Part shown: positions 8,886 to 63,778 of the stretch, piece by piece
Position numbering within the stretch: position 1 is the first letter of the stretch
How the letters are laid out: every line of letters begins with the position of its first letter
Assembly: GCF_044324875.1 (NCBI RefSeq)
Contig: NZ_CP172188.1
DNA from: Escherichia coli
GTDB taxonomy: Bacteria; Pseudomonadota; Gammaproteobacteria; Enterobacterales; Enterobacteriaceae
Direction: 5' to 3' (one strand)
Length of the DNA: 64,000 nucleotides
Notes under the pieces: model-generated
The model's database searches: none
What the model saw: the letters and a program-made list of their open reading frames with translations, nothing else
Told to the model about the DNA's origin: nothing
Position numbers and translations under genes: made by a program

Positions 8886-9377
8886 TTGTTATTATTTCGC
8901 TTATTTACTATCAATGGGTGTGTTAGAAAAATAGCGAGGAAAAGAAGGCGTCGCAGTGAATATTCTGAAACGTCCCCACATGCCGCAGCTCTCAGAGAAC
9001 TGGAGAAAAACCCAGATCTAATCAAAAGGAACCATGAGCATTACGAGCAGGTACGCGTCCTGGATTGGTTGTATCGCAATATGCGCTATGTGTATGAGCA
9101 TACACACGCCACTCCAAACGGCGGTCTGCGAGGCATAAGGACGGCAATAAAAATGGTGGCAGAGGGCCAAAAGAAGGGATATCCCGATCTTTCTATAGAC
9201 CTTGCTTGTGGGGGATACCACGGAATGCGCATTGAGATGAAACATGGGAGAAATCGCCTGACTCCCGAACAACTCGTCTGGATGACTCGCCTCACCGAAG
9301 CAGGTTACTACTGCTTTGAGGCGCGCAGTGCCGCTGAAGCCATAAAAGCTATCACGGAATATGTTTGTCTTGATTAA
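8886..9377 (+). CDS. VRR-NUC domain nuclease (PD-(D/E)XK family); true start uncertain (no in-frame ATG near 5' end, TTG/other likely)
   Basis: C-terminal region ...GYPDLSIDLACGGYHGMRIEMKHGRNRLTPEQLVWMTRLTEAGYY... fits the VRR-NUC pattern (G-x-PD ... E-x-K ... Q..W). Confidence 0.6.
   Translation: MLLFRLFTINGCVRKIARKRRRRSEYSETSPHAAALRELEKNPDLIKRNHEHYEQVRVLDWLYRNMRYVYEHTHATPNGGLRGIRTAIKMVAEGQKKGYPDLSIDLACGGYHGMRIEMKHGRNRLTPEQLVWMTRLTEAGYYCFEARSAAEAIKAITEYVCLD
8918..8934 (+). promoter_or_regulatory. operator-like motif copy (GTGTGTTAGAAAAATAG)
   Basis: Matches the recurrent TGTTAGAAAA core; lies at the 5' end of the VRR-NUC ORF. Confidence 0.45.
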
Positions 9378-9391
9378 ACGGAGAAATCGTT

Positions 9392-9592
9392 TTGCGTTTA
9401 CTTAACGTGGCTGAACTTATCCCTGCTGGTGCTAACGTTGTTGCTCGCCGTCGTTCCTGGCAGCAACCATTGTGTGTTGAGTTGTTGAAACACAGCAATG
9501 GAACAATAGAGGCTCGGAATATTGTCACTGGTGATAAGGTTCACATTACCCCGGAAAGTACAGGCGCTGATGATTGGGAGTTTGTACATTGA
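9392..9592 (+). CDS. small DUF2829/Tad2-like protein
   Basis: 66 aa, TTG start with GAGAAA RBS; VVARRRSWQQP ... ADDWEFVH. Confidence 0.4.
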   Translation: MRLLNVAELIPAGANVVARRRSWQQPLCVELLKHSNGTIEARNIVTGDKVHITPESTGADDWEFVH

Positions 9593-9888
9593 GCAAAAAA
9601 TATCATGTGAACCTGGCGTTTGCCGATGACGCCGGGAGGACGCGGAGCATTACGCTCAACACTGCCCGCAAGGTGGTAACAGCGCCTTTAATCCGGGAAG
9701 CACTCAGGGAGCTGGAAATGGGGGAGAACTCGACCCTTTTGTCGGTTAGTTGGTTAGGGAAAATGTCAGAGAAGGAATACGTAGACGGAGTTACTCCCAT
9801 GACAGCCATGAGGCTGCTTTCATTGCTGCAATGGGCTATCGTACCGGTATGCATCGTGTATTTTATCTACCAGGCAATGACACAATAA
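9574..9888 (+). CDS. hypothetical small protein with C-terminal transmembrane segment
   Basis: 104 aa; hydrophobic C-terminus LLSLLQWAIVPVCIVYFIY. Confidence 0.4.
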   Translation: MGVCTLSKKYHVNLAFADDAGRTRSITLNTARKVVTAPLIREALRELEMGENSTLLSVSWLGKMSEKEYVDGVTPMTAMRLLSLLQWAIVPVCIVYFIYQAMTQ

Positions 9889-9894
9889 CCGCTC

Positions 9895-9922
9895 AAAAAC
9901 CCGCCGATTAGCGGGTTTTTTG
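9895..9922 (+). terminator. rho-independent terminator
   Basis: AAAACCCGCCGATTAGCGGGTTTTTTG hairpin + T-run immediately after the 9574..9888 ORF. Confidence 0.7.
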
Positions 9923-9962
9923 TTTATCACATCTTTCGCTCTTGTTCTCATACTAATAAAAT

Positions 9963-9980
9963 ATGTTAGAAAACTAATTT
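9963..9980 (+). promoter_or_regulatory. operator-like motif copy (ATGTTAGAAAACTAATTT)
   Basis: Consensus copy directly upstream of the 10004..11212 CDS. Confidence 0.5.
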
Positions 9981-10003
9981 TGCAAAAAACAATGGGAACT
10001 GCA

Positions 10004-11212
10004 ATGAGTCAACAAACTGATACTTCTAATCTGGAAATCATCTCAGCCGCGATTGAAACGCTGCGGACACAGATCGCCCTTATTCAAAAGCGGAATCCGG
10101 GGGATGACCTGTCCAGACGGCTACATGAGAGCGTCATTGCCACTACTGATAACCTGGTCGCGGAGATCAACCAGCTACTTGAGGAAGGGACGGTTGATTA
10201 CAACAAGCTGGTGGATCAGTTTGAGGAATATCAACAAGCCGTTAATGATGGCTTGATCCGTTTTTCACAAGTCACAGGCGTATCAGCGACAGTTGAAAGT
10301 CTTGGCAATGCTGTTAATCAATTTGCCGCGAATATGCGTAGTGAGATCGGCAATCTGGAAGCGCGTCTTGAACAGGCAAACACACTGCGCAAATCCGCAG
10401 AAGCCGATTTGAGTCGTTACAAAAAAGACTATCCAGCCAGTCTGTCAAAACGACTGGATGTTGCGGAGAAGGATAACCGTGCGCTGAAAAGAGAGCGTCG
10501 GGAACTAAAAGAGCGTTTAACAGAGCTGAATCAGCAATGCATTAAGTATCAAGGCGAAGGCGTCACACTGCGTAAAAAGTTAGCAGCAGCGCAGAACATT
10601 ATTGAAACGCTGAAACGAGAGTGCTCACAGCTTGGTCATGATCTGAACCGCGCTTGTGGTATGGGACAAAGGCCAGAGACATTCCCGCTCATGTATGACG
10701 GGGTGGATGCTATTGCCTATATCCATGAGTACCCGCATGGTCTGGTTGCGGAGACTGGTCAGCGTGGTGAAGCTCTGTTGACGGCTAATTACCATCAACA
10801 AATTAGAACCAACCGCCTGCTGACGATGGATGTGATCCCATCAGTATGGGGAACGCCGCTTTACTATCGCCTGCCCGGCTTCGAAACGGACTGGAATACC
10901 GATATAGACGAATGCCTGGCAGATAAAATTATGGCGTACCTGGAGACTGATTTCCCGCGCCTGCATCGCCGGATTATGGACTCTAAGGATGCGCCGATCG
11001 ATGAATTGAAAATGCGCCCAGAGACGTTGGAAGCTATCAAACAGACTGCGTTTGATACCGTATTCAGCGTGGCCTGTATCCCAAGTAGTTTTCATGAAAG
11101 CATCCCCTTTATGCAGGGCGACCGTCGTCAAGAAATTATTGATGCCTGCCGGGTGTGGGCTAACGAATGGGACAAGAAGAATGGGGGCGTAGAAGATCTT
11201 TATGGGAAATAA
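10004..11212 (+). CDS. hypothetical protein with N-terminal coiled-coil region
   Basis: ORF 9920..11212; most likely start ATG 10004 (GGGAA RBS-like 7 nt upstream); heptad-like charged N-terminal third. Confidence 0.55.
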   Translation: MSQQTDTSNLEIISAAIETLRTQIALIQKRNPGDDLSRRLHESVIATTDNLVAEINQLLEEGTVDYNKLVDQFEEYQQAVNDGLIRFSQVTGVSATVESLGNAVNQFAANMRSEIGNLEARLEQANTLRKSAEADLSRYKKDYPASLSKRLDVAEKDNRALKRERRELKERLTELNQQCIKYQGEGVTLRKKLAAAQNIIETLKRECSQLGHDLNRACGMGQRPETFPLMYDGVDAIAYIHEYPHGLVAETGQRGEALLTANYHQQIRTNRLLTMDVIPSVWGTPLYYRLPGFETDWNTDIDECLADKIMAYLETDFPRLHRRIMDSKDAPIDELKMRPETLEAIKQTAFDTVFSVACIPSSFHESIPFMQGDRRQEIIDACRVWANEWDKKNGGVEDLYGK

Positions 11213-11213
11213 T

Positions 11214-11231
11214 ATGTTAGAAATCTAATTT
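11214..11231 (+). promoter_or_regulatory. operator-like motif copy (ATGTTAGAAATCTAATTT)
   Basis: Starts 2 nt after stop of the 10004..11212 CDS. Confidence 0.45.
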
Positions 11232-11368
11232 CATCAAACGAACATATTGATTGTGAGAGTAACTTAACTTAGAATTTTCCTTGCTGGTGGAGCGTTGCCA
11301 CATTTCGCTTGCTGGGCTTGATAGTCACTTATTGGTTGTTGTTCGCCCACCAGCAAATAACAAATTAA

Positions 11369-11385
11369 AGTGTTAGAAAATTACA
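11369..11385 (+). promoter_or_regulatory. operator-like motif copy (AGTGTTAGAAAATTACA)
   Basis: TGTTAGAAAA core at the start of the long non-coding tRNA region. Confidence 0.4.
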
Positions 11386-11967
11386 TGCATACAGGGACTC
11401 GCTTTGGCACCGAGCAAGCCAAAGTTCAGCAGGTTTAGTGCGTAAAGTGGTTTCAGAGAGAGCACTTTACGGAGTAAACAACAAGACATGTTGAGCCACG
11501 GAAGGTCTTTTTAAGATGTTCATTGATGATGGTCCGGCAGAGAGTAACGGGACTCGCCGCATCGAATCATCATCAATGCACATCCTCAACATTAAGGAGG
11601 CATAGGGATTTTTTTGTGGCGATTACCTTTTGCCCTAAGTCTCCTTAATGTTGCGGTAATGCACCTATGCGGATGCGGCCTTGCATTGTGTCTTGAAAGA
11701 ATGGGGTAAGGCCGGGGATATCCCCAGGGGGAGGCACCCCCGCTGCAACGAACAGCCACAGACGGCAGTCGAGTGATGGAAACGTGCAAAGACTTTAAAC
11801 CTCGTTACGGCTGGCGTGGCAAACGCGACAACCGAGACAGAGCGGTGACGGGCGGAGAGAGTGCCGCATCAAGAAAGAAGCCGACTTGTGATCCCTTTCT
11901 GCGGGCATTTGAAAGTGAATCCAGCTCAGGCAGTCGGCTTCTTTCTTGTGTGAGATGTAGCGTATTT

Positions 11968-11992
11968 GCCCATCTTCGGGTGGGCTTTTTTA
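11968..11992 (+). terminator. rho-independent terminator-like hairpin
   Basis: GCCCATCTTCGGGTGGGC followed by TTTTTT; no credible CDS upstream, so may terminate a non-coding transcript. Confidence 0.45.
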
Positions 11993-12451
11993 GGGTTTTC
12001 GTCATGGTTAGCGACTTTGCGGCGGTTTAGAACCCGACCATTAAAGTAAATGCAAACGATGATCTGATGATGGTAGCGGCCTAAGAAGCCTGACGCCACG
12101 GGGTATGAGTCGTCCCCCGTCAAAAAATCGACCGCAGAGTGTCCCCGTCTGTGTATTAGGGAACGGGGAGGCATAACAGGCAAGGGCGCTGGTGTGATTA
12201 ACCAGATGAATGAGAAGGGTCAGGTCTTTCTGGTCAGCGCCCTTACCTGTTACGTCCCTCCCGCGTAACAGCCATTGATTAATGGCTTTCTGGGATAACA
12301 TCCTACTACGGGTATATCCCGTCATGCTGAAGGCGCTAATCACGCTGGAAGCCAGGGTTGTGCATCCCCTGTTACCGAATTGCAGCCAGGGCGCGGTGCG
12401 CCGAAAAGCATACGGAGGTGGAAGCCCTCGCCGGAGACGTACCCGGCAAGT

Positions 12452-12528
12452 GATGGTGTAGCTCAGTAGGATAGAGCAGCAGCCTTCTAAGCTGTCGGTC
12501 GGTGGTTCGAATCCACCCACCATCGCCA
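12452..12528 (+). tRNA. tRNA-Arg (anticodon TCT)
   Basis: 77 nt; 7-bp acceptor stem GATGGTG/CACCATC, D-arm GCTC..GAGC, anticodon loop CTTCTAA, T-arm GGTGG TTCGAAT CCACC, encoded CCA. Confidence 0.9.
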
Positions 12529-12530
12529 AT

Positions 12531-12606
12531 GCCGGTTTAGCTCAGTTGGTAGAGCGCCTGCCTTGTAAGCAGGATGTCAGCGGTTCGAGTCCGTTAACCG
12601 GCACCA
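12531..12606 (+). tRNA. tRNA-Thr (anticodon TGT)
   Basis: 76 nt; acceptor GCCGGTT/AACCGGC, anticodon loop CTTGTAA, T-loop TTCGAGT, encoded CCA; P1 also carries a tRNA-Thr. Confidence 0.9.
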
Positions 12607-12608
12607 AC

Positions 12609-12694
12609 ACAACAGGTAAGGGTATTTTGCGACGTCGGAGATCGCCGTGCTTGGCAGAGGGTTCGAATCCCTACGAAGTACCCTTACCGTTGTG
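12609..12694 (+). other. tRNA-like remnant / structured element: 15-16 bp stem enclosing a T-loop-like GGTTCGAATCC
   Basis: ACAACAGGTAAGGGTA ... TACCCTTACCGTTGTG inverted repeat; no canonical D or anticodon arm identifiable. Confidence 0.25.
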
Positions 12695-13071
12695 ATGAAG
12701 TGCAGCTCTTTGAAGCAACCAGAAGATAAGCATCTGGCTTCACAACATAAACCGCAGGAACGACCAATAAACGGTAGTCCGTATGGAGAATACCCCGTTG
12801 AGGAAGAGGCCTGGCCGGAACCGTAACCGGCACTACAACGTTGAGAACACTGACGTAACGGGGTCATATCCCAATCTACGAATAAATGTTGCGTTGCAGC
12901 GTGACAACCAGTGTTCTCAACGTTGTGGTGGATTCGCAGACTGATGCGATAGCTTTCTTGGATGTTAGGGAAATGCGGCCGCAAACCTTCCCTTTCGCGA
13001 GCGGTGATCGTCCGTAGTCCTAATTGGCTGCACCGTATGCCGGAGATTCAGTACCGGCCACCACAACGGCC

Positions 13072-13158
13072 GGAGAGTAGGGAGCATGGTGCTCAAGCGG
13101 TCTTGAAAACCGTCCCATTGCGCAAGCGATGATGGTTCGATTCCATTACTCTCCGCCA
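13072..13158 (+). tRNA. atypical type-II (long variable arm) tRNA-like gene, anticodon possibly TGA (Ser-like); may be a pseudo-tRNA
   Basis: 87 nt; acceptor GGAGAGT/ACTCTCC, anticodon stem-loop GCGGT-CTTGAAA-ACCGT, T-arm GATGG TTCGATT CCATT, discriminator G + CCA; D-arm irregular. Confidence 0.4.
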
Positions 13159-13561
13159 TCGCAACGTTAAGAGTATTTGGCTAATTAAGCGAATGCCGGA
13201 AGCAGAACCGGATCAACAAATGCGTACAGGCGTCATCGCCGCCCAGCCAGCCAAGTGCTCTTACCATTGCGGTGAATGCGGCTAAGCGCACGCGGAACAG
13301 TTAAAACAATCCTGCTTACTAAACATCCCGGCGTTAATTGTTAACTGGTTAACGTCACCTGGAGGCACCAGGCACCGCAATCTAACAGCAATGGCGTTTT
13401 GTCTTAAAAGGTAGCTGCAAGTGATGGATTTTTGGGCCTTTGCCGATAAGAACCCTGGTTGGACATTTTTATTTCTGCTGGTGGTTGCATATGGGATCGA
13501 GCAAGCGGCAAAAGCCTTACGCGGTTCTGGCAAAAAGCGTAAGCGGAATTAACAGTAATCT

Positions 13562-13637
13562 GGCCCTTTAGCTCAGTGGTTAGAGCTGGCGACTCATAAT
13601 CGCACGGTCACCGGTTCAAGTCCGGTAGGGGCCACCA
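13562..13637 (+). tRNA. tRNA with CAT anticodon, most likely tRNA-Ile2 (lysidine type) rather than elongator Met
   Basis: 76 nt; GGCCCTT acceptor, anticodon loop CTCATAA, T-loop TTCAAGT; resembles enterobacterial ileX-type tRNA as I recall it; P1 also encodes a tRNA-Ile. Confidence 0.85.
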
Positions 13638-14090
13638 TATTTGGTTGTAACACGGCGTATGGCACATGCGTCGTTAGCGGTCTGGTGACGTTATAGGGGT
13701 TACCTTTTCCCCTAGCTCAGGCAACAAACCAGGTAGCCGGAATGTGCAAGCCCCGTTCATATCGTCGGACCGAGGACTCACCATCCTGGCGATTCGGTGT
13801 GACAGCCGGAAGAGTACGGCGCACAACAGGAAAAGGCGTTTAATTAACGTGAGCGCCGTTTCCGTTGTGGTAATTGCGGCTATGCGCTCGTGACGAAGCC
13901 ATTTTCATTCACTACGTTCTGATAAGTGACGTCGCCAGGAGTGGCTAACCTGGCAGGTGGAGTCACCACCGCCACAACTCCTTTCAATTCATCATATAGC
14001 CGCTCAGGCTGTAACCCTTAATTAATACGAAGTTTCGACATCTCTATCGGTTTAACCGAGGGATGGTCGCGCGTGTAAAAAGGAGACGTT

Positions 14091-14666
14091 ATGTTAACGG
14101 CGAACGATAACGCGTATGCAGAAGCAGATCTCATATTGAGTGACTTCATCGGTCAGCGGGAACGCTGGACACAAAAGCGAGAGGAACTTTATGCCTCGTT
14201 AGTTCGCAAAGGTGTCAACATTGAAACCGCTCAAAGCGGCGATATGACGGTAGTCAGTGTTGGATTACATGGTGTGAGCGTGTCCGCAGCCAATCATGAG
14301 CCATACGTAGCGTTATCCGAGTCGATGGCAAGGCTAATTAAGTTTCTGAAGCAAACAGAAGCCAATAATGTTTTCATCGCCAAAAAGAACATCAATTTTT
14401 CTGCCGCCATGTTCTGGATGATGAAGGGGCTGGATGCCCGCCGGGCATCATGGCCTAAAGGGAGCTATTTATCGATGTTCCGTGGCAGCATTGGCAGCAA
14501 AGAAAAGCTCTTCGAATTCTTGCCGGAAGAGGCATTCGATATTGTGGAAGGGTGCGATGTGATGGTTATGCCTCGCCTGGTAATGATGAATGGGGATTTA
14601 CAGGCGCAGACAGACTGGTTCGCAACTGGCGTGGATATTATCGCAACTGACTGGGAGGCATTCTGA
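14091..14666 (+). CDS. hypothetical protein with C-terminal DUF2829/Tad2-like domain
   Basis: 191 aa; C-terminal LDARRASWPKGSYL ... IIATDWEAF. Confidence 0.5.
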   Translation: MLTANDNAYAEADLILSDFIGQRERWTQKREELYASLVRKGVNIETAQSGDMTVVSVGLHGVSVSAANHEPYVALSESMARLIKFLKQTEANNVFIAKKNINFSAAMFWMMKGLDARRASWPKGSYLSMFRGSIGSKEKLFEFLPEEAFDIVEGCDVMVMPRLVMMNGDLQAQTDWFATGVDIIATDWEAF

Positions 14667-15058
14667 TGTACGAGACAACAAAATTAAGCATTCACGAAGT
14701 CTCCAACGTGGAGTGGAATATCGTCACCTGTAAGATTGTATCGTGTAATGCTGCGCGTACTGATGCAGGCCATAAGAGCACGATAACAGGCTACATGGTA
14801 ATGGCTTATAGGGGATTGAGAGTTCGCTTTATCTGGAAAGCTCGGCAATTGACACCATTCAGAGAGCCGTCAATGCCATTAGAGGTAGAACAGGATTATT
14901 TAAGCCTGCCGGAAATAGACGGTGCAACGCTGGTGGATTCTGATGGTCGTAAGGCTGATTTTGAAGTCAGCTTAAAGGTGGCGCAGGCCGTAATTAATAA
15001 CTCACGTGGTAAGTGGATCGCTAAGGTAAAACACGTCGTTCGCTTATCTCGCTGGTAG
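14666..15058 (+). CDS. hypothetical protein
   Basis: 130-aa ORF; start overlaps upstream stop (TGATG). Confidence 0.5.
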   Translation: MYETTKLSIHEVSNVEWNIVTCKIVSCNAARTDAGHKSTITGYMVMAYRGLRVRFIWKARQLTPFREPSMPLEVEQDYLSLPEIDGATLVDSDGRKADFEVSLKVAQAVINNSRGKWIAKVKHVVRLSRW

Positions 15059-15070
15059 TGTTAGATGAAT

Positions 15071-15089
15071 GGAATTAATTTTCTAATAT
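15071..15089 (-). promoter_or_regulatory. operator-like motif copy (reverse strand ATATTAGAAAATTAATTCC)
   Basis: 15 of 18 consensus positions; upstream of the Lpa-like candidate. Confidence 0.35.
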
Positions 15090-15166
15090 AACCAACTTTT
15101 TGCCAGTCTATACAGAAATAACATTCTCATTATCATCCCCTCGGTCATTTCCTGCCTGGGGGATTA

Positions 15167-15559
15167 ATGGAGCATATCAGCAGCGCAGAAATTGCGGATA
15201 TCATGATTAGGGCTGACTGCTATCTGACAGTCACCGAAATCACCACTCTAGCTAAAGAAAAATATCCTCACCTTCATGTTTCACGCGTAAGTGTAACCAA
15301 CATCATTCGGCATTTTGTGCGGTCAAGCCGAGCTATTTGTGAGCTTGATGATCGTGTTTACCCACGGAAATACTGGTTGCATGGCCTGAACGGATATCAG
15401 TTCAAGGTGCGCGGGCGCACGCCTGAATACGGTAGCTTACTGGTTAAAAACTGTAGCAGGAAATCAGTCGAACAGGCGCGAAAAGAGCAACGAGAGCTGG
15501 TGGACATGGCGAATAAGCTGTGGAATGCCGCCGTTAAAAAGCGTGGTGTTGCTTTATGA
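15167..15559 (+). CDS. candidate late-promoter activator (Lpa-like), by synteny only
   Basis: 130-aa basic protein immediately upstream of the terminase genes and preceded by an operator-like site, as for lpa in P1; no sequence-level confirmation. Confidence 0.3.
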   Translation: MEHISSAEIADIMIRADCYLTVTEITTLAKEKYPHLHVSRVSVTNIIRHFVRSSRAICELDDRVYPRKYWLHGLNGYQFKVRGRTPEYGSLLVKNCSRKSVEQARKEQRELVDMANKLWNAAVKKRGVAL

Positions 15560-16920
15560 GTCTGGTTAATTGGGAGGAGCACCGCGCCCGCTTTATAGCG
15601 TTGCGTGAAGAAAAAGGGATCACTGTAAAGGAATACTGTGAGGAGCATGGCCTTAGCTTCAATACAGCCAGAAAGCATCTCAATATGAAAAAAAATGAGG
15701 TGCGGTCGCAGGTGAAGACTACAAAAAAAAGCACCAAATCACCTGAAAAAAAACGGGCAGGAAGAGCAAAAAAAAGGCCAGAAGAGGGTACAGAAACAAC
15801 AAAATTTACAGAAACTGACAATTCACAGAGCGGAAGTTCTTTCCGGAGCATGCCGAGAAAGAAAACTTCGGATCATAAAAATAACGACAATAATAACAAT
15901 GAGATAAAAGAATCTGTCAGGAGATCATTGCGCGAAAAAATGGCGAAAATGATCCCCACCGAAGATAAATGCGCCTCAAAAATCGAGGGATCTTCAGCAA
16001 TGATCCCTGGCGGTGCTGTGCAGCGTGCCACGTTGCCCACTACGAGTGTGGCTCGCGACATGATGAAGAACGGCGCAGAAGAGCACCTGCGGTTAGCAAT
16101 TCAAATGGCGCAAGAACGCGCACTTCAGTACCAAAGCATTGTTGATCAGGAGGCCGAACGCCTACAGGCGGAGATAGACGCCCTGGGTGATGAACAGCCA
16201 GAAGGAATGCACCCTGGGCAGCGACTTCTCGGTCTAATCAGTGACGCGGCCTACTACATGAACGATTTTATCAGTAGGTTGGCAGCGATATATCAGTCCG
16301 AACAAAAGCTGCGACAGGGTGATGAAAAACTTCGTCAGGGTGCTCGCCAGCAAGCATTCAGAGAGGCCGAGGCCAGAGAAAAACTCGAATTAGCACGCCT
16401 ACAGGCCGAACAGCGTGGCAAAGAGATTGAATATCGCATTGGCGCTGACGCACGCGCAGCCAGAGTTATCGCCGCCGCTATACGTATGCGTGAGCGCGAG
16501 GAGCTGGATGATATCGGTGTTGCTGAATACATCGAGCGTCAGGGTGTCAGTGTCCCGGCTATCCTCGCGGCGCGCGCGGCGAAAGCTATCACTCTTCTCG
16601 AGCCTCCAGTTTCTGACATCAATGATGTTGATGATGAACAGCTGGACAAAGAAGCGAAGGAGTTTGCATCGCTTCAGGCTAACCATCCGCAATGGCTGGC
16701 AGAGCGCCGGGCGGATGTGGCAACCATTGTTGAAGATCTGGGGTGCGGAGATTACGACCACAATGGCGAGCGTAAGGCTGGGGAATTCGAGGCCAACGAC
16801 GAAGAGTTGGATATTGACCCTTCGGCTACGGCTGAAATTTACGGTGATTATGATGCATCAGACGCAGGATATGACGCCGGAGATGATGATATCGCGATAG
16901 AACCGCCGGAGGACGACTAA
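15556..16920 (+). CDS. terminase small subunit (PacA-like)
   Basis: 454 aa; N-terminal HTH-like region, Lys-rich linker, acidic C-terminus; overlaps large-subunit start (TAATG). Confidence 0.55.
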   Translation: MSLVNWEEHRARFIALREEKGITVKEYCEEHGLSFNTARKHLNMKKNEVRSQVKTTKKSTKSPEKKRAGRAKKRPEEGTETTKFTETDNSQSGSSFRSMPRKKTSDHKNNDNNNNEIKESVRRSLREKMAKMIPTEDKCASKIEGSSAMIPGGAVQRATLPTTSVARDMMKNGAEEHLRLAIQMAQERALQYQSIVDQEAERLQAEIDALGDEQPEGMHPGQRLLGLISDAAYYMNDFISRLAAIYQSEQKLRQGDEKLRQGARQQAFREAEAREKLELARLQAEQRGKEIEYRIGADARAARVIAAAIRMREREELDDIGVAEYIERQGVSVPAILAARAAKAITLLEPPVSDINDVDDEQLDKEAKEFASLQANHPQWLAERRADVATIVEDLGCGDYDHNGERKAGEFEANDEELDIDPSATAEIYGDYDASDAGYDAGDDDIAIEPPEDD

Positions 16921-18428
16921 TGGCTGGTGGGCGCAAGATTAAATGCGTCACCAGCGATCCACGCTGGCGCGATATGGTAATCAAATACCGCTACAACTTT
17001 ACCCAGGCTGTTGTTGATATTTTCGGGATGTTTCCCTCCCACCAGCAGCAGGAGATTATCCAGTCCGTACAGCAAAAAGGGAGCAGAACCACTGTTACTT
17101 CTGGTCACGGTACAGGGAAATCGTCGTTAACGGCTATGTTGTTGCTGATTTATTTGATTCTGTTCCCCGATGCCCGTGTCATCATTGTTGCTAACAAGAT
17201 AGGCCAGGTTAAAACAGGCGTATTCAAATACGTTAAACAGTATTGGGCGAATGCAGTTAAGCGTCACGGGTGGTTACAGACCTATTTTGTCCTGTCTGAC
17301 ACCATGTTTTATGAACGTTCCCGCAAAGGGATCTGGGAAGTTCTCTGCAAAGGTTATCGACTCGGTAACGAAGAAGCACTGGCGGGGGAGCACGCGGCAC
17401 ATTTGCTTCTAATTCTGGATGAAGCATCAGGTATATCTGATAAAGCGATCGGCGTAATGACTGGCGCTCTGACTGAAGAAGATAACCGAATGTTGATGCT
17501 ATCCCAGCCAACAAGGCCAAGTGGTTATTTCTACGATTCGCACCATTCTCAAGCTAAAACCCCAGACAACCCGAAAGGGATCTGGACAGCAATTGTTCTT
17601 AACTCAGAAGAATCACCGTTCGTCACACCACAATTCATCAGGCAGAAGCTTCTGGAATATGGCGGGCGCGATTCTATTGAGTACATGGTCAAGGTTCTTG
17701 GTCAGTTTCCTCGGGAGATTAACGGCTATTTGCTTGGTCGTGATGAATGCGATCGCGCTGCGCGGCGCAAGGTGTTGTTGGAGAAAAACTGGGGATGGGT
17801 GGCTACTGCTGACGTTGGTAACGGGCGAGACAAGTCAGTTCTTAATATCTGTAAAGTGTCTGGTCACCGGGAAAAGCGGCGTGTTGTTAACTTTAAGGTA
17901 ATGGAAATGCCAGGGACTATGGACCCGCTGGCTTTTGCTGACTTTATATACAACGAATGCACGCCGGATAAATACCCGAATATTACAATCGCGGTTGACG
18001 CAGACGGTTTTGGTTCAGATACCTGTGCGCAGCTGGTGCGCCGTGGGGCTAATCCGGTACGGATTCGGTGGGGGAAACCCATGTTTTCGAACAAAGACAA
18101 GGAGCGTTTTGTTAACCAGCGTGCCTACGCAAATATTATGGCTCGTGATGCCATAAAGTCAGGTCGTATGCGAATAGACAGCGACCCTAAAACGGCAGAG
18201 CAAGCGTCAAAAATCCCCTTTTTACTTAATGAAGAAGGGAAGATGGCGATGATGCGCAAGGAGCACATGCGGCAAAAGCTGAACATCAAATCACCTGACC
18301 GATGGGATACCTACTGCTTTACAATGCTGGTGGACTATGTTCCTGCTAATGAAGATATCGGCGCTGAAATGGCTACCTTCCGCGATCAGGTTCTTGCAGA
18401 TGTGGAAATGCCAGAGCTGGATATATAA
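16920..18428 (+). CDS. terminase large subunit (PacB-like; ATPase + nuclease)
   Basis: 502 aa; Walker A TSGHGTGKSS, Walker B LLLILDEASGISD, long C-terminal nuclease-type domain. Confidence 0.85.
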   Translation: MAGGRKIKCVTSDPRWRDMVIKYRYNFTQAVVDIFGMFPSHQQQEIIQSVQQKGSRTTVTSGHGTGKSSLTAMLLLIYLILFPDARVIIVANKIGQVKTGVFKYVKQYWANAVKRHGWLQTYFVLSDTMFYERSRKGIWEVLCKGYRLGNEEALAGEHAAHLLLILDEASGISDKAIGVMTGALTEEDNRMLMLSQPTRPSGYFYDSHHSQAKTPDNPKGIWTAIVLNSEESPFVTPQFIRQKLLEYGGRDSIEYMVKVLGQFPREINGYLLGRDECDRAARRKVLLEKNWGWVATADVGNGRDKSVLNICKVSGHREKRRVVNFKVMEMPGTMDPLAFADFIYNECTPDKYPNITIAVDADGFGSDTCAQLVRRGANPVRIRWGKPMFSNKDKERFVNQRAYANIMARDAIKSGRMRIDSDPKTAEQASKIPFLLNEEGKMAMMRKEHMRQKLNIKSPDRWDTYCFTMLVDYVPANEDIGAEMATFRDQVLADVEMPELDI

Positions 18429-18450
18429 AGCCCCGGCAATGCGGGGCTTG
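18429..18450. terminator. hairpin between convergent terminase and repressor-candidate genes
   Basis: AAGCCCCGGCAATGCGGGGCTT. Confidence 0.45.
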
Positions 18451-18453
18451 TGA

Positions 18454-19491
18454 TTACCAGAGTTTAGCGGCGTGCTGTGTTTGGGAGAAAGTGAACCCGT
18501 AACGTTCTTCTATGGTTTTACCGTATCTTTTCCGCGCGTCTGTCAGTTTTATGCCTGTCAGGTCATCTCCGGATGTCATCATTACGTCTAACAACTCCAG
18601 ATCCATTTTATTCAGTCGCGCCATCGCTTCGCGTGCTGTCTGTATTTTACGCTCAATGATATGGCGAATAGCCGGATCGGCTTCCTCAAGCATTTTGGCT
18701 GATTTGTTCTTTAAGCTCTCATTGCGGATGTCGATGTTTCGCAAGATGTATGACTTCGCAACATAGCTTGGTTGGTGTTTCTCCAGATCGCGAACGCGAT
18801 AGAGACTAAAGTCACCAAGCAGGCCGCAAGGTATCGACTCAACCCCAGAATAAATAGTAATGCTGCGACGTTCGCCGACATTATTAACAACGGGCACTGT
18901 GGTGTTCGGAAGTTTTGCGAACACTAAGGCTCCGTGTGCGCCTACCCTGAATCGTGACAGAGCATTGCTGCCTTCAATGTTTGTTGTAAGCACTACATCT
19001 GTGTATCCATCTTTGCGCGCCCGGTAAACTTCCCCTTCAGGTTCTGATGCGAAAAAACGGCGCTCTTCTTCAAGTGCACCAACAATCTGCGAAAATATCT
19101 TGTTTTTCAGGCTTTTCTTTATAATTGCATCATATTTTTTGAGCAGATTTTCGCGCGTAAATGAGCGGGTGGTGGTCGCGCTTTGCACAACAATATGCGT
19201 GCTTTGATTTGTGTCCTCGATAATGAATGGGATCGGAGAATATACAGACTCAACAATGTTAGACGCTTTGCCGTCAGCGTTACGGCACAAGTCAACAAAG
19301 GCTTTCCATTCTGTGAGGCACTTTTCAGCTTCTTCTAGCACATTCTGATCATGTGTTAGTGCAACATGGCGGAATTCCTCGCCGGCATAACTGGTATCAT
19401 GGAAAACAGAGTTTGCGACCACCAGCTCTTTCCACCGTTCAGCGGTTTGCAGGAACCGTTTGTACTCTTTCTCGATCGACTTCTTACTCAT
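18454..19491 (-). CDS. candidate C1-like master repressor (by position and operator cluster; sequence not confirmed)
   Basis: 345 aa; convergent with pacB as c1 is in P1; its upstream region 19504..19700 carries 2-3 operator-like motifs. Confidence 0.35.
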   Translation of the reverse strand: MSKKSIEKEYKRFLQTAERWKELVVANSVFHDTSYAGEEFRHVALTHDQNVLEEAEKCLTEWKAFVDLCRNADGKASNIVESVYSPIPFIIEDTNQSTHIVVQSATTTRSFTRENLLKKYDAIIKKSLKNKIFSQIVGALEEERRFFASEPEGEVYRARKDGYTDVVLTTNIEGSNALSRFRVGAHGALVFAKLPNTTVPVVNNVGERRSITIYSGVESIPCGLLGDFSLYRVRDLEKHQPSYVAKSYILRNIDIRNESLKNKSAKMLEEADPAIRHIIERKIQTAREAMARLNKMDLELLDVMMTSGDDLTGIKLTDARKRYGKTIEERYGFTFSQTQHAAKLW

Positions 19492-19503
19492 TATTCCTAC
19501 TCG

Positions 19504-19520
19504 ATTTAGTTTTCTAACAT
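19504..19520 (-). promoter_or_regulatory. operator-like motif copy (reverse strand ATGTTAGAAAACTAAAT)
   Basis: 13 nt upstream of the candidate repressor start codon. Confidence 0.5.
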
Positions 19521-19691
19521 AAAATTACTATGACAAATCTATGCCGAATAACAGGGTGAGTAAAGGATCAAGATGCATTTTTTTATCATCCAATTTAGAA
19601 AATTCTGCTTAAAAACTGCCAGGCATAACTTAAAGCCCACGCCAGCAATGCATTGCCCATCTGCGCGGAAAGGAAAAAAATTCCTAAGTTT

Positions 19692-19725
19692 CTAACTTTA
19701 GATAATTGGCATTATTTAAAGTTAG
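19692..19725. other. lox-like 34-bp recombination site (13-bp inverted arms, 8-bp spacer)
   Basis: CTAACTTTAGATA-ATTGGCAT-TATTTAAAGTTAG; arms differ at one position; 9 of 13 arm positions shared with loxP ATAACTTCGTATA; 150 bp upstream of the Cre-like gene. Confidence 0.55.
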
Positions 19726-19876: not shown

Positions 19877-20905
19877 ATGAGTGAATTAATTATCTCTGGC
19901 AGCTCCGGTGGTTTTCTGCGCAACATTGGCAAAGAGTACCAGGAGGCCGCAGAAAACTTTATGCGGTTCATGAATGACCAGGGGGCTTACGCGCCGAATA
20001 CTTTGCGCGATCTCCGGTTAGTGTTTCACTCCTGGGCGAGATGGTGTCACGCTCGCCAGCTCGCCTGGTTCCCGATCTCACCAGAGATGGCCCGCGAGTA
20101 TTTTCTTCAGCTGCATGATGCTGATCTGGCTTCGACCACCATTGATAAGCACTACGCCATGCTTAACATGCTGCTTTCGCATTGTGGCCTTCCGCCACTT
20201 TCGGATGATAAAAGTGTTTCTCTGGCTATGCGGCGCATCCGGCGTGAAGCGGCAACTGAAAAAGGCGAACGAACAGGCCAGGCTATACCGCTGCGGTGGG
20301 ACGATCTGAAACTGCTCGACGTCCTGTTGTCCAGGTCAGAACGGCTGGTGGACCTGCGCAACCGGGCTTTTCTCTTTGTTGCATACAATACGCTGATGCG
20401 TATGTCGGAAATCTCGCGTATTCGTGTAGGAGATCTGGATCAAACAGGTGACACTGTCACGCTACATATTTCACACACGAAGACAATAACGACCGCCGCC
20501 GGGCTTGATAAGGTGCTTTCCCGTCGCACTACCGCTGTGCTGAATGACTGGCTGGATGTTTCCGGGCTTCGCGAACATCCTGACGCAGTGTTGTTCCCGC
20601 CGATACACCGTAGCAATAAGGCCAGGATCACGACAACGCCCCTTACTGCACCTGCAATGGAGAAAATATTCAGCGACGCCTGGGTGTTGCTGAATAAAAG
20701 AGATGCTACGCCAAACAAAGGAAGATACCGGACGTGGACCGGGCATAGTGCACGCGTCGGGGCCGCTATTGATATGGCTGAAAAGCAGGTGTCTATGGTG
20801 GAGATCATGCAGGAAGGAACCTGGAAGAAACCGGAAACACTTATGCGGTATCTTCGCCGTGGCGGCGTGTCTGTGGGGGCTAATAGCCGCCTGATGGATT
20901 CGTAA
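19877..20905 (+). CDS. cre: Cre-family tyrosine recombinase
   Basis: 342 aa; blocks resembling P1 Cre as recalled: MLNMLLSHCGLPPLSDDKSVSLAMRRIRRE, DLRNRAFLFVAYNTLMRMSEISRIRVGDL, WTGHSARVGAAIDMAEKQVSMVEIMQEGTWKKPETLMRYLR (R-H-R-Y region). Confidence 0.85.
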   Translation: MSELIISGSSGGFLRNIGKEYQEAAENFMRFMNDQGAYAPNTLRDLRLVFHSWARWCHARQLAWFPISPEMAREYFLQLHDADLASTTIDKHYAMLNMLLSHCGLPPLSDDKSVSLAMRRIRREAATEKGERTGQAIPLRWDDLKLLDVLLSRSERLVDLRNRAFLFVAYNTLMRMSEISRIRVGDLDQTGDTVTLHISHTKTITTAAGLDKVLSRRTTAVLNDWLDVSGLREHPDAVLFPPIHRSNKARITTTPLTAPAMEKIFSDAWVLLNKRDATPNKGRYRTWTGHSARVGAAIDMAEKQVSMVEIMQEGTWKKPETLMRYLRRGGVSVGANSRLMDS

Positions 20906-20922
20906 ATTAAAATTCTAACACA
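20905..20922 (-). promoter_or_regulatory. operator-like motif copy (reverse strand TGTGTTAGAATTTTAATT)
   Basis: Upstream of the 20979..24600 operon. Confidence 0.45.
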
Positions 20923-25717: not shown

Positions 25718-25737
25718 TACTGTTTATTCATACAGTA
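25718..25737. promoter_or_regulatory. LexA box (SOS operator) in the humD promoter
   Basis: TACTGTTTATTCATACAGTA = CTGT-N8-ACAG palindrome about 20 nt upstream of the humD start. Confidence 0.7.
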
Positions 25738-31443: not shown

Positions 31444-31477
31444 ATGTTAGAAAACTAAAATCAATGTTCTAACACAT
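31444..31477. promoter_or_regulatory. paired (inverted) operator-like motifs
   Basis: ATGTTAGAAAACTAAAATCAATGTTCTAACACAT: TGTTAGAA ... TTCTAACA inverted halves; upstream of the 30407..31402 gene. Confidence 0.5.
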
Positions 31478-36961: not shown

Positions 36962-36992
36962 TGTGTTAGAAAATCAATTTTGAATATCTAAC
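36962..36992. promoter_or_regulatory. operator-like motif pair upstream of ref
   Basis: TGTGTTAGAAAATCAATTTTG plus inverted ATATCTAAC; 50-80 nt upstream of ref. Confidence 0.5.
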
Positions 36993-37041
36993 TGTTTTGA
37001 TCAATCATAGAAAAATAGCTGAAAAGTAAGAGGCAGCCATC

Positions 37042-37620
37042 ATGCAGAAACAGAGCTATTGGGAGAAACAGAGACAAAAAGCCATGCAAAAATTGGCTGA
37101 CCCAGCCTGGCGAGAGGAACAAAGGGCAAAGCGCCTTCAACAAGCTCAACGCCAGCAGCAGCGAGCGAGAGAAAAAGCCGCATCGCCTGAATATCGGCAA
37201 AAGAAAATTGAAAAAGCAAAGCAATATGAACAGCGGAGAAAAGATAAAGCTGTATCCGCTCCGCCCAAAAAAACACGCACGTCACGCGGCCTGAAGGGCA
37301 GATCACTCACAGCCGATGAACGCCGGATACAGACCGCTATCGGTACTCTCCCCTGCATTGCCTGCCATATTCACGGGCAACATAGCCCAGTGGTATCCCT
37401 GCACCATATCTTCGGGAGAACGGCAGAGAACGCACATAAATATGTCCTCCCTTTGTGTAAATGGCACCACCAGTACGCAGCGCCAGCCGAGGTCCGAGAA
37501 CAATATCCCTGGCTGGTCCCTGTTCATGCTGATGGAAAAATAGGCGGAAAAGCAGATTTCATACGGCACAATGCCGATGAAATGGCGTTGTATCAGATGG
37601 CGATTGAATTAATAAATTAG
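37042..37620 (+). CDS. ref: Ref recombination-enhancement HNH-family endonuclease
   Basis: 192 aa; basic N-terminus then SRGLKGRSLTADERRIQTAIGTLPCIACHIHG ... CKWHHQYAAPAEVREQYPWLVPVHADG, matching P1 Ref as I recall it. Confidence 0.85.
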   Translation: MQKQSYWEKQRQKAMQKLADPAWREEQRAKRLQQAQRQQQRAREKAASPEYRQKKIEKAKQYEQRRKDKAVSAPPKKTRTSRGLKGRSLTADERRIQTAIGTLPCIACHIHGQHSPVVSLHHIFGRTAENAHKYVLPLCKWHHQYAAPAEVREQYPWLVPVHADGKIGGKADFIRHNADEMALYQMAIELIN

Positions 37621-38139: not shown

Positions 38140-38430
38140 GGCATTATCGTGGGGTATATTTCTACGGCACCTTAGAAAAACGGGTGCCGGGATTGGAACC
38201 CCGGATAATGCAAAAGGCGACACAGACGCCGAAAGCGTCTTTTCTTGTGTCATGCCATCGCACAGCCATACGTAGCGTTTAGCTCAGAGATCAATGGTAG
38301 TGCTGGCTGGGCTGCCGAAAGGCAGGCCGGTTCCCTTTTGCGCCGGTAGTTCCAACCCAGTCAGTGCTACCGCCATTGAGATTGGAACCTCACGCGGTAG
38401 CTCCTTAAATTAGCAAAAGGAGGCTGCCAA
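38140..38430 (+). ncRNA. candidate c4-like antisense RNA / leader region of immunity module A
   Basis: Structured leader upstream of the icd-like gene: direct repeats GATTGGAACC (38192, 38383) and a partly complementary GTTCCAACC (38346); hairpin GACGCCGAAAGCGTC + T-run near 38223. Confidence 0.3.
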
Positions 38431-41290: not shown

Positions 41291-41530
41291 TTCATTAACT
41301 CCATACTTTACCATCTTAGCCGCGAGCGCGGTCCCTAAAACCATTAACTTCACTGCACCGTTCCTTCATGCAATCAAAATGACTTTTATGTTATAAAAAT
41401 AATCAGCCAAATCAACATGATTTAGGCCAAATGCGTATTCCGCTCTATTCGATCACGGATTGGCATCGAAGTCCGATCAGCGATTCGCATCCATTCGATC
41501 AACCGGGAACTTAACTTTTTCTACCGCTTT

Positions 41531-42286: not shown

Positions 42287-42302
42287 ACTGTTGTTCCTTC
42301 TG

Positions 42303-43838: not shown

Positions 43839-43941
43839 AGTGCTCCTGGATTTTCTCTTTCTGGACATTGACGTCTCCACTGGTTTAAACACGGCAATGG
43901 AGACTGTGGTGAAAAGAGTTAATTCCCGGAGTGACTGGCAG

Positions 43942-52750: not shown

Positions 52751-52792
52751 CAATTGTGTTAGATAATTGAACAGAATTTTCTAACACAATTG
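52751..52792. promoter_or_regulatory. palindromic operator-like site upstream of rdgC
   Basis: CAATTGTGTTAGA ... TCTAACACAATTG, perfect 13-bp inverted arms. Confidence 0.6.
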
Positions 52793-61793: not shown

Positions 61794-61820
61794 GCTTCAC
61801 AAAATCTATATAGCTATTTT

Positions 61821-61838
61821 ATGTTAGAAAAATAATTT
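61821..61838 (+). promoter_or_regulatory. operator-like motif copy (ATGTTAGAAAAATAATTT), candidate control site of immunity module B
   Basis: Consensus copy ~100 nt upstream of the c4-like leader. Confidence 0.5.
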
Positions 61839-61899
61839 GAATTTTCGAACATAAACAATAAAATAAATCATCAAAAATTTGATGTTGATCTTCCATGTT

Positions 61900-62160
61900 T
61901 TCAGGCTTATATTCACGCCGTTGCAGCAAATTCTGCGACCGGGTTTAGCAGCCTGAATGTACATGCGGACAACCGCAGATATCCGATATTGCGGTATTTT
62001 TGTGTCCGTAAAACCATGTTACGCCCGAATTATGGTGGGGCGTGATGGGGAGGCTTCGGCCTGCTGGTTTCATGTACGCCAGTCTGCTAACCCCGTCACG
62101 TCCTGCCACCCGTTTAGCAGCGGGTAGCAGGTTGTTAAACCTGTACATGAGGCCGTAACT
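61900..62160 (+). ncRNA. candidate c4-like antisense RNA locus of immunity module B
   Basis: Paired elements a=TTTAGCAG and b=GTACATG occur at 61945/61958 and again at 62112/62141; complements (CATGTAC at 62066, CTGCTAA at 62085) lie between in reversed order. Confidence 0.35.
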
Positions 62161-62385
62161 ATGGTTAATGCCAATCCTTGCTCACGTCCAGAATTCATCT
62201 GGCGTTTTCACTCCCTGCAAAAACACTGCGATCACTTCGCAATTGCCGCAACTGAAAAAGAAGCCCGTTCTCTGATCCCTGATCAGTATGGTGTTCTTAC
62301 TGGTCGTTTCTCTACTTCCCCACAACCAAACACTAATCCCTGGTATCGCAATATTACCAATCCCGGAATTGCGGAGGCACACTGA
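62161..62385 (+). CDS. Icd-like small protein (module B)
   Basis: 74 aa; paralog of 38432..38647; stop overlaps ant start (TGATG). Confidence 0.5.
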   Translation: MVNANPCSRPEFIWRFHSLQKHCDHFAIAATEKEARSLIPDQYGVLTGRFSTSPQPNTNPWYRNITNPGIAEAH

Positions 62386-63305
62386 TGGATATCTGCATTC
62401 TTGAAAAGCCATCAATGACCAGCATTGAGATCGCGGAGCTGGTGGGAAGTCGTCCAGATAACGTAAAAATATCAATAGAGCGCCTGGCTAAATCTGGAGT
62501 TATTCAACTTCCTGCATTGCAGGTTTTCGAAAAAATCAATAACTTAGGACTACGCCGTAGTGTCGAGGCTTACGTCTTCGAAGGCGAGCAAGGCAAACGA
62601 GACAGCATTATTGTCGTTGCGCAGCTCTCTCCCGAATTCACCGCCCGGCTGGTGGACCGCTGGCGCGAACTGGAAGAACAAGTACGCCAGCCGTTGACCG
62701 AAATAGAGATGATCGCCGCAATGGCTGCAAATGCAGTTCAGCAGCAAAAGCGGCTTCATGTTGTTGAGTCAAAGGTTAGCCAGGTTGCTGAAACCGTCGA
62801 GCAGATCAAGAAGGGCAACATGCCAGAAGGTTACATTGGCTACCGCCAGCTGGCGGCGAAATGTGGCCTGACTGAAGCCAAATGTCGCAACCTGGTTAAC
62901 GCTTTCCGGATTCCCACCGATACGCATGAGTTTTTAACTCCAGATGGTTTGCTTGCGCGACGCTCCATTGTGGCCCTGGCCCCCTTCCGGAAAGCCTTTA
63001 AGCAGGTGATGTCGGAGGCAGAACCACGCAACAAACGCTGGTATCATCCGAAGATGGGGCTGTTTCAGGCAATCCATCATCCTGTGCCTGAAAGCCCAAA
63101 GGATAATCTGTCACTACATACCGTCAGAGAGAAGATCAGGACTGGATACGCAACAGTGTGTCGTCGTTCTTCCTGGCCTGAAGGTATATGGGTGTGGCCC
63201 GAAGGTGGATCACGAAAGCACTGGCGCACTATCCGGGACGGGAAAATCCATGCTATTGATTTAGCGCCAGAGGATATTGTTGCTACGGACTGGATTGTTA
63301 GTTAA
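62385..63305 (+). CDS. antirepressor-like protein: Rha-family N-terminal domain fused to DUF2829/Tad2-like domain (module B)
   Basis: 306 aa; N-terminal 60 aa and middle linker differ from module A, C-terminal 200 aa nearly identical. Confidence 0.65.
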   Translation: MDICILEKPSMTSIEIAELVGSRPDNVKISIERLAKSGVIQLPALQVFEKINNLGLRRSVEAYVFEGEQGKRDSIIVVAQLSPEFTARLVDRWRELEEQVRQPLTEIEMIAAMAANAVQQQKRLHVVESKVSQVAETVEQIKKGNMPEGYIGYRQLAAKCGLTEAKCRNLVNAFRIPTDTHEFLTPDGLLARRSIVALAPFRKAFKQVMSEAEPRNKRWYHPKMGLFQAIHHPVPESPKDNLSLHTVREKIRTGYATVCRRSSWPEGIWVWPEGGSRKHWRTIRDGKIHAIDLAPEDIVATDWIVS

Positions 63306-63313
63306 TTACTGTT

Positions 63314-63336
63314 GCCCCGGCCTGTCCGGGGCTTTC
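63314..63336. terminator. terminator hairpin
   Basis: GCCCCGGCCTGTCCGGGGCTTTCG. Confidence 0.55.
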
Positions 63337-63340
63337 GTGA

Positions 63341-63745
63341 CTAAAAATCTGTTCGCTGTCGCCATGCGTTTTTTAACTCAGGAATATCCGCCATTTCAAT
63401 TAACTTGCGAAGTCCAGCACTGACTTTCCCATTGCCAACCATAGCAAGCCAATCTCTTACAGCTTTCGGCATGTAGAGCGTTGCAGTTACCGGCTCTTCA
63501 ACCCTGGCAGGACATCCGCATACAGGCCATTTAATTGATTCCATAACTTCGGATGCCGGGGTGAGGGCGGGGACATTGAGTATATCTCTACCAGAAAACT
63601 GGATAACGATCCGTTCAGCGAGCGAGAGTATCTCACTTTCGGCAAGAATTGATGCCAACTGCGCCTCAACAAGAAAGCGACTTGTTGTGTTCAGAGAGTG
63701 GCTCTTAGCGCCATTTTTATACGAAACAAAGATTCGATACGCCAT
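63341..63745 (-). CDS. hypothetical protein
   Basis: 134-aa ORF; operator-like motif just upstream of its start. Confidence 0.45.
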   Translation of the reverse strand: MAYRIFVSYKNGAKSHSLNTTSRFLVEAQLASILAESEILSLAERIVIQFSGRDILNVPALTPASEVMESIKWPVCGCPARVEEPVTATLYMPKAVRDWLAMVGNGKVSAGLRKLIEMADIPELKNAWRQRTDF

Positions 63746-63758
63746 AACTCTAATGATT

Positions 63759-63778
63759 TGTGTTAGAAAACTAAAATT
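63759..63778 (+). promoter_or_regulatory. operator-like motif copy (TGTGTTAGAAAACTAAAATT)
   Basis: 14 nt upstream of the 63341..63745 start. Confidence 0.5.

Follow-up and report, generated by a model that had tools for sequence, protein, structure and literature searches.

A 64,000-nucleotide stretch of Escherichia coli DNA (contig NZ_CP172188.1; hereafter the window) comes from a D6-like phage-plasmid of the P1 family, that is, a plasmid-prophage related to phage D6, and it carries an asymmetric, non-palindromic 18-bp motif, RTGTTAGAAAAYTAAWTT, at 13 strong and about five weaker sites. By analogy with phage P1, these sites are very probably the operators of a C1-family master repressor that the element encodes and whose binding to them is predicted. 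A C1-style dispersed repressor regulon had been proposed for this DNA in an earlier, sequence-only reading, and several lines of in silico evidence now support it: the candidate repressor belongs to the C1 family, the operator word is exclusive to elements with this type of C1, the sites match P1 operators in position, the one word stands in place of the other in the c4 control region, and the sites are conserved in relatives. While P1 and P7 have made systems of this kind familiar, we found no description of the operator word or of its map in the searchable literature (which excluded the D6 genome paper, Gilcrease & Casjens 2018), nor any operator annotation in the two D6 GenBank records.

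An asymmetric motif in excess over chance

In the sequence-only reading the motif had been written as an 18-mer, WTGTTAGAAAAYTAAWTT, which has two exact matches in the whole window and 13 matches at no more than three mismatches. Dinucleotide shuffles of the window gave a mean of 0.46 such matches and a maximum of 3. We also built a 20-column weight matrix from the motif sites and scanned the window with it. The resulting scores are two-peaked: 13 sites score 22.5-32.2 (16.3-31.5 in a leave-one-out calculation), followed at a distance by values of 17.7, 13.2 and 11.x. A first-order Markov simulation of the whole window predicts 0.01 sites scoring at least 19, and a simulation with the composition of intergenic DNA alone (7.5 kb, 44.8% GC) predicts 0.002. 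Information content is highest over the core TGTTAGAAAA, which, with 10 copies, is the commonest 10-mer of the entire window. Since the observed sites far exceed the levels reached by shuffling and simulation, the frequency of the motif is well above what AT-rich intergenic DNA would be expected to yield (13 observed versus 0.002).

The sites are also conserved where the surrounding DNA is not. The window is 91% identical in DNA to D6 (MF356679) over positions 8000-19600 and ~98% identical to many E. coli plasmids of 88-93 kb; its gene content corresponds to that of D6 nearly gene by gene, apart from rearrangements near the immunity modules and a segment inserted in the window at 41531-43949. 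More distant relatives are represented by three contigs, L007, L008 and L009, whose C1 proteins are 52%, 50% and 45% identical to that of the window. Upstream of c1, TGTTAGAAAA is invariant in five lineages, with flanks that are 59% identical (alignment A1), and the operator block of lpa, the late-promoter activator gene, TTTTCTAA(T/C)A, is kept in five lineages as well (alignment A2). In L007-L009, TGTTAGAAAA retains its places in DNA that is only ~59-61% identical: one copy directly precedes the c1 ribosome-binding site, an inverted one lies ~75 bp upstream of that, and others occur in front of lpa and of the VRR-NUC gene, behind the recombinase gene and near pmgS. In its 3' half the motif has drifted by one or two bases, and in L007 and L008 the difference is mainly one extra base (AAAAA, then TAGATTT or YYAATT); we limit our claim to drift, and have set aside the idea that a lineage-specific 3' half marks a change of specificity. 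An exact 15-mer of the motif occurs in 120 viral-contig stretches. The contigs that hold several copies are D6-like, and 98 of the 120 stretches are unrelated to the window or D6 and resemble chance single matches.

One may also consider that the sites reflect chance similarity in AT-rich intergenic DNA, or that they are relics of a single duplicated segment, and the AT-rich, low-complexity 3' half of the motif would suit such an origin. We regard this as extremely unlikely, given 13 observed sites against 0.002-0.5 expected, the fact that similarity among the sites stops at the motif borders, and the retention of orthologous positions, amid diverging flanks, in D6 and the three distant relatives; both the shuffles and the conservation of the sites refute it.

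Intergenic DNA makes up 11.7% of the window under a maximal-ORF (open reading frame) model, and 14 of the 16 listed sites are at least 60% intergenic, in agreement with the dispersed, mostly intergenic placement that had been proposed. The remaining two (8921 and 9963) overlap ORFs only where the maximal model extends these too far in the 5' direction: in the VRR-NUC ORF the PHROG match begins at residue 27-40, and pmgS in D6 starts downstream of the site. Orientation relative to the downstream gene varies in the window as well as in P1, and this speaks against a directional promoter element; where the flanking genes are co-directional, the site at 11214 points the same way and those at 15072, 20904 and 37614 point the opposite way. 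Among the top k-mers of the window there is no second repeated motif of similar rank, the others being Chi sites and a coding repeat. The latter, CGCCAGCTGGCG, was rejected as a second motif, being located inside three paralogous ant genes.

The individual sites are listed in Table 1. The positions given in the sequence-only reading were correct for 9963, 11214, 11369 (11370 in our scan), 15071 (15072, minus strand), 19504 (19503, minus), 20905 (20904, minus), 37611 (37614, minus) and 63759 (63760). The inverted pair at 31444 is a true one, and the site at 61821 likewise turned out to be an inverted pair. The palindrome noted at 52751 is a perfect 13-bp inverted repeat, CAATTGTGTTAGA / TCTAACACAATTG, at 52751-52792, and holds two moderate sites. 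Within each of the pairs 31444/31458, 52756/52770 and 61821/61835 the 18-mers have exactly 4 bp in common, with the same geometry in D6, and two or three of the "single" sites have a weak partner at the offset of the pairs. A pair had been claimed at 36962 too; one strong site is there, and its partner, although of the same geometry, is weak. The lpa operator has a weak inverted partner at 15058-15075 (score 4.7).

Three further positions held up in part. The one at 8918 is only a half-site, yet it is identical in D6; it lies downstream of the best sigma-70-like match among all the sites (TTTACA-16-TATTAT). The one at 19592 is degenerate in the window, and the same position is occupied by a perfect inverted core in the three distant relatives. 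The one at 19686 is doubtful, with one A missing, and it overlaps an arm of rox. The rox-like site itself, on the minus strand at 19681-19724, reads TAACTTTAAATAATGCCAATTATCTAAAGTTA, and its right arm continues into the operator-like AAGTTAGAAACTTAGGAA; repressor and recombinase sites may overlap here, though the operator match is poor.

Table 1. Predicted C1 operators of the window, with the associated genes and RNAs. Scores are those of the weight matrix unless stated otherwise; a dot marks inverted pairs.
Feature	Position	Strand	Score or match	P1 counterpart	In relatives
Half-site GTGTTAGAAAAATAGCGA, upstream of pmgM / VRR-NUC gene	8921..8938	+	<8 (weak)	O26	identical in D6; full core at same place in L008
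Operator between pmgR and pmgS	9963..9980	+	32.2 (exact consensus)	OpmgRa/b	D6 10315, identical; L007, same position
Operator right after pmgS stop codon, upstream of tRNA operon	11214..11231	+	29.9	Obanab	
Second operator upstream of tRNA operon	11370..11387	+	22.5 (leave-one-out 16.3)	Obanab	score 13.1 in D6, 18.4 in L007
Operator 78 bp upstream of lpa	15072..15089	-	26.4	Olpa	
c1, 345-aa (amino acid) C1-family repressor, presumed binder of the motif	18454..19491	-	PHROG, Pfam of homologues, synteny	c1	
Operator just ahead of c1 ribosome-binding site (putative autoregulation)	19503..19520	-	29.3	Oc1/Op99a	
Degenerate inverted second c1 operator AATTTAGAAAATTCTGCT, ~75 bp upstream	19592..19609	+	12/18 to consensus		perfect inverted core in L007, L008, L009
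Operator over dre stop codon, upstream of orf117-dut operon	20904..20921	-	26.1		D6 89945; L007 8421; L008 8404
Bivalent operator between ppp and pdcB-pmgT (31444/31458)	31444..31475	.	29.9 and 25.4	OpmgT	D6 80706/80722, same geometry
Operator upstream of ref, strong + site with weak inverted partner	36963..36994	.	28.1 and 5.6	Oref	D6 76630
ref ORF	37042..37620			ref	
Operator over ref stop codon	37614..37631	-	exact consensus	Omat (exact positional analogue)	D6 75977
C4 antisense RNA, first icd-ant module (isrK match 38167-38245)	38290..38377	+	Rfam RF01695, 76.7 bits		
Weak candidate upstream of simB, not established	41388..41405	+	13.2		D6 72195, identical sequence
Bivalent operator 13 bp upstream of hrdC/rdgC-dmt (52756/52770)	52756..52787	.	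11.3 and 17.7	Odmt	D6 64113/64129, scores 21.1 and 24.0
Bivalent operator upstream of second immunity module, its a1b1 target and C4 RNA (61821/61835)	61821..61852	.	29.6 and 23.3	Oc4	
a1b1 target (c4-a1b1 match)	61907-61959				
C4 antisense RNA, second immunity module	62028..62113	+	Rfam RF01695, 71.7 bits		
icd, second immunity module	62161..62385				
Ant-family gene, second immunity module	62385..63305				
Operator in divergent region between orf52 and major capsid gene	63760..63777	+	29.1	none	D6 54201

Operator words and positions in P1 and D6

P1 contains 22 dispersed, asymmetric 17-bp C1 operators with the consensus ATTGCTCTAATAAATTT (PMC8546580). At no more than three mismatches this consensus has 17 matches in P1, none in D6 and none in the window, while a scan with the matrix of the window motif gave 14 strong sites for the complete genome of D6, as against none for P1. 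P1 has one operator word and one type of repressor, D6 and the window have another of each, and no overlap between the two was seen. The earlier suggestion that this element follows the logic of P1 with a different operator sequence is thereby upheld, neither genome holding the word of the other, and the lack of any match to the P1 consensus in the window places the element outside the P1/P7 immC specificity group. A different immunity specificity is expected rather than surprising, because the element belongs to a described phage type, the D6 family. What the operator word adds is a sequence basis for the independence of D6-like elements from P1/P7 immC immunity.

We compared the positions of the sites with the operators annotated in the P1 record AF234172, naming window genes via D6 and P1. 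About 10 positional matches were observed (Table 1), including the unusual position of Omat, which in P1 (2628-2645, minus strand) overlaps the ref stop codon at 2637. D6 has a further site upstream of repL, in a region outside the window, which is the counterpart of P1 OrepL. The two systems are thus alike in many respects. In both, a homologous repressor is encoded between pacB and a lox/rox-recombinase module, and the operators are asymmetric, 17-18 bp long, present in 15-22 copies across a genome of ~90 kb, and either monovalent or bivalent in the form of overlapping inverted sites, although bivalent sites overlap by 4 bp in the window and D6 versus 6 bp in P1 Obanab. The targets in common are ref, c4-icd-ant, repL, hrdC-dmt, the tRNA/ban operon, pmgR/S, pmgT, lpa and c1, and both systems have antirepressor modules controlled by C4 antisense RNA. 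The comparison indicates that a dispersed regulon can swap its word at every site while the positions of the sites are kept.

The c4 control region is the single control region that can still be aligned with P1 (alignment A4). There, the constitutive P1c4 promoter is conserved (TTGACC...TATAGT in P1, TTGATC...TATATT in the window), and just upstream of it, where P1 has Oc4 over the -35 of a C1-controlled promoter, the window has its bivalent site instead and D6 has its own copy. From 11965 onward the window matches the leader of the P1 ban operon and the tRNA region, downstream of Obanab, at 92.5% identity, and ppp and pmgT, which flank the pair at 31444, are 82-85% identical to P1 DNA.

An alternative explanation is that the motif is a promoter or transcript-start element (an initial transcribed sequence or a discriminator of early promoters), or else the site of a host factor. 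Indeed, a -10-like hexamer (TAAAAT, TAATAT) directly precedes the motif at many sites, and all sites lie in promoter-bearing intergenic DNA. Such an element would hardly be expected, however, to occur in both orientations to the downstream gene and in overlapping inverted pairs, or to lie over the stop codons of upstream genes, as two copies do (20904 and 37614). Furthermore, the motif is absent from P1 even where the downstream units have homologues there at 84-92% DNA identity, which fits a repressor word specific to the phage rather than a signal for the host polymerase or a host factor, and we consider this alternative very unlikely. A late-promoter motif was also rejected as a candidate: P1 late promoters carry AACAAGTGACT at -22, a sequence that bears no relation to the motif, and lpa itself has the motif upstream.

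Taken as operators of C1, the word and its map provide a predicted C1 regulon for annotating D6-like elements, and a second, presumably orthogonal P1-type repressor/operator pair for genetic tools. Elements of this type are common in E. coli and Salmonella of human and livestock origin, and more than 60 plasmids in one collection carry D6-like plasmid prophages at a query coverage of at least 80%.

The C1 repressor and its predicted circuit

Judged by its sequence, the 345-aa product of 18454..19491 (minus strand) is a member of the C1 repressor family. It is 89.9% identical to D6 gp1, annotated as "prophage repressor, similar to P1 C1", and 20% identical to P1 C1 over 239 aa (BLASTP, E 8e-8). 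Both the window protein and P1 C1 match phrog_1678 from end to end (E 4.7e-159 and 2.6e-140, respectively). The Pfam family PF27008, "Phage_P7_repressor_C1", is found in precomputed annotations of homologues that are 45-96% identical to window C1; a Pfam-A profile scan and a PDB sequence search with window C1 itself gave no match. The gene order is lpa-pacA-pacB-c1(-)-rox-dre, so that c1 lies between pacB and rox/dre, compared with pacB and lox/cre in P1. The shared PHROG, the Pfam family of the homologues and the c1-like synteny bear out the choice of this gene as the candidate repressor in the sequence-only reading. Window C1 differs from P1 C1 in an additional C-terminal helical extension of ~60-90 aa. 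The family is small, with 119 clusters at 50% identity among 1.84 billion representative proteins.

In a lysogen, C1 would bind each asymmetric 18-bp site as a monomer, by analogy with P1 C1, with two molecules on each of the three inverted pairs that overlap. It would thereby prevent transcription of ref, orf86-C4-icd-ant, C4-icd-ant, hrdC-dmt, the tRNA operon, pmgS, pdcB-pmgT, the dut operon, the VRR-NUC gene, lpa and c1 itself, and in D6 also of repL. Repression of lpa would keep all late genes silent, and c1 would be autoregulated through the site at 19503 and the inverted site upstream of it. Ant-family antirepressors, presumably held in check by two C4 antisense RNAs, would inactivate C1 once C4 control fails. 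In P1, inactivation of C1 leads to induction of ref, ban, ssb, dmt and kilA (PMC4713147). We infer the identity of the binder, its stoichiometry and promoter occlusion; the geometry of occlusion is drawn by analogy, except in the c4 region, where the P1 promoters align.

An immI-type module, composed of a C4 antisense RNA, icd and an antirepressor gene, is present under the predicted operator pair 61821/61835, at the position of P1 Oc4. The sequence-only reading had placed both immunity modules under control of the motif. For the second this agrees with the pair just mentioned; for the first (C4 RNA at 38290), the closest operator upstream is the one at 37614, ~550 bp away. The window differs from P1 in having two C4 modules and three Ant paralogues. 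There are only two C4 antisense RNA genes (38290-38377 and 62028-62113) for three Ant-family genes (1-307, 38647-39588 and 62385-63305), and the latter share a near-identical internal stretch, within which CGCCAGCTGGCG repeats at 59, 39127 and 62844. The three Ant-family proteins also match PHROG families labelled "transcriptional regulator".

Several observations weigh against C1 acting at these sites in the manner of P1. A scan for sigma-70 -35/-10 elements around the sites gave mostly weak and mutually inconsistent promoter matches, the c4 region being the exception. The sites at 20904 and 63760, and the pair at 31444 in its position relative to pdcB, have no exact P1 counterpart. Finally, neither the window nor D6 has a homologue of the P1 modulators Lxc and Coi detectable by tblastn (E >0.3 for both). 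There is no coi-sized ORF between c1 and dre, and no room for coi upstream of c1; Lxc is reported to be absent from a D6-like plasmid as well (PMC6799933). Since Lxc and Coi are not detected, the circuit differs from that of P1, in ways that could include the binder.

Such rewiring would suit a different scenario, in which the sites are truly regulatory and are bound by another element-encoded DNA-binding protein (an early activator, a Cro-like lytic repressor or a member of the Ant family), with C1 acting elsewhere. The "transcriptional regulator" labels of the Ant-family proteins could be taken in its favor. Nevertheless, the sites track the experimentally defined C1 operators of P1, including one directly upstream of c1, no second repeated motif of comparable rank is present, and the motif occurs wherever a D6-type C1 occurs, down to 45% identity. 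We thus consider another binder unlikely, and C1 the probable one.

Two further observations concern the modulators. Directly after ulx, at 8486-8746 (plus strand), lies an 86-aa ORF that corresponds to P1 lxc (82 aa) in place and length. It belongs to PHROG 6844 rather than to PHROG 2160, that of lxc, and shows no detectable similarity to it; it was rejected as Lxc, and is a candidate analogue of the corepressor by position only. In P1, LexA controls coi, whereas no LexA box was found near c1 in the window. The sole good LexA-box-like sequence of the window is at 25720-25735 (CTGTTTATTCATACAG), in the humD region, and is homologous to a P1 LexA site.

Regarding how C1 may contact an asymmetric operator, the predicted structural models of window C1 and P1 C1 match the fold of a single known protein, Tus. 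The P1 C1 model, obtained independently from an 86-sequence family alignment, has a predicted local distance difference test score (pLDDT) of 95.5 and a predicted template modelling score (pTM) of 0.83, and matches Tus with an E-value of 2.6e-9 and a template modelling (TM) score of ~0.5; the next match has an E-value of 0.13. Tus binds non-palindromic 23-bp ter sites asymmetrically (PMC8347550), with which the asymmetric C1 operators agree. Tus is a monomer. At the sequence level no relationship was recovered (hhalign probability 0.4%), and a comparison of the operator with the Ter core (ATGTT..AACT) gave 9/11 identities with a 2-bp gap, which is not beyond chance (P ~0.05-0.09), and 7/11 for the P1 operator. 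No paper linking C1 and Tus was found in the searchable literature. We tentatively suggest, as one possible reading of these models, that the whole C1 family, P1 C1 and window C1 included, has a Tus fold and binds its asymmetric operators as a Tus-like monomeric clamp. If true, this would explain a 40-year-old oddity, namely a monomeric repressor with non-palindromic operators.

Whereas Tus-Ter is the replication fork barrier of E. coli, the predicted role of window C1 is transcriptional repression. One possibility is that C1-operator complexes act, besides occluding promoters, as orientation-dependent roadblocks to RNA polymerase or replisomes. Several sites are found at the ends of genes (11214, 20904 and 37614). 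Many dispersed, short and asymmetric repressor sites, some of them away from promoters and at gene ends, are also known as the stoperators of cluster A mycobacteriophages, which are bound by L5 gp71. That repressor is an unrelated helix-turn-helix protein, and stoperators act in one orientation relative to transcription. A stoperator-like polarity was rejected for the window, where the sites have no consistent orientation relative to transcription.

Other features of the element

The insertion at 41531-43949 (minus strand), which is absent from D6 and lies between simB and mat, encodes a 548-aa transposase (phrog_1157) followed by a 332-aa DnaC-like/IstB-like ATPase, a gene pair typical of an IS21-family element. 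Next to isaA lies a 461-aa ORF (23215-24600, plus strand) that D6 does not have at the same place. It shares 33% identity with a part of P1 PacB, weakly matches terminase large subunits (phrog_5902; phrog_2, E 1e-8), and may be a diverged second gene of the terminase type.

The tRNA genes of the window lie on the plus strand at 12452-13637. A tRNA-Arg(TCT) gene takes the place of the tRNA-Asn(GTT) gene of D6, and the window has an extra gene for a tRNA-Met/Ile2-like tRNA (CAT). In D6, ARAGORN places three tRNA genes at 7145-7850 on the minus strand, in the direction of pmgS and tciA, whereas the GenBank record has them on the plus strand.

Chi (GCTGGTGG / CCACCAGC) provides the most frequent 9-mers of the window, at 17-20 copies per 64 kb. 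Lastly, a G+C-rich hairpin (ATCCCCTC ... GGGGGAT) is situated at 15125-15166, directly upstream of the lpa start codon. It is kept with compensating changes in D6 and the three distant relatives (alignment A2), and may serve translational or attenuation control of lpa.

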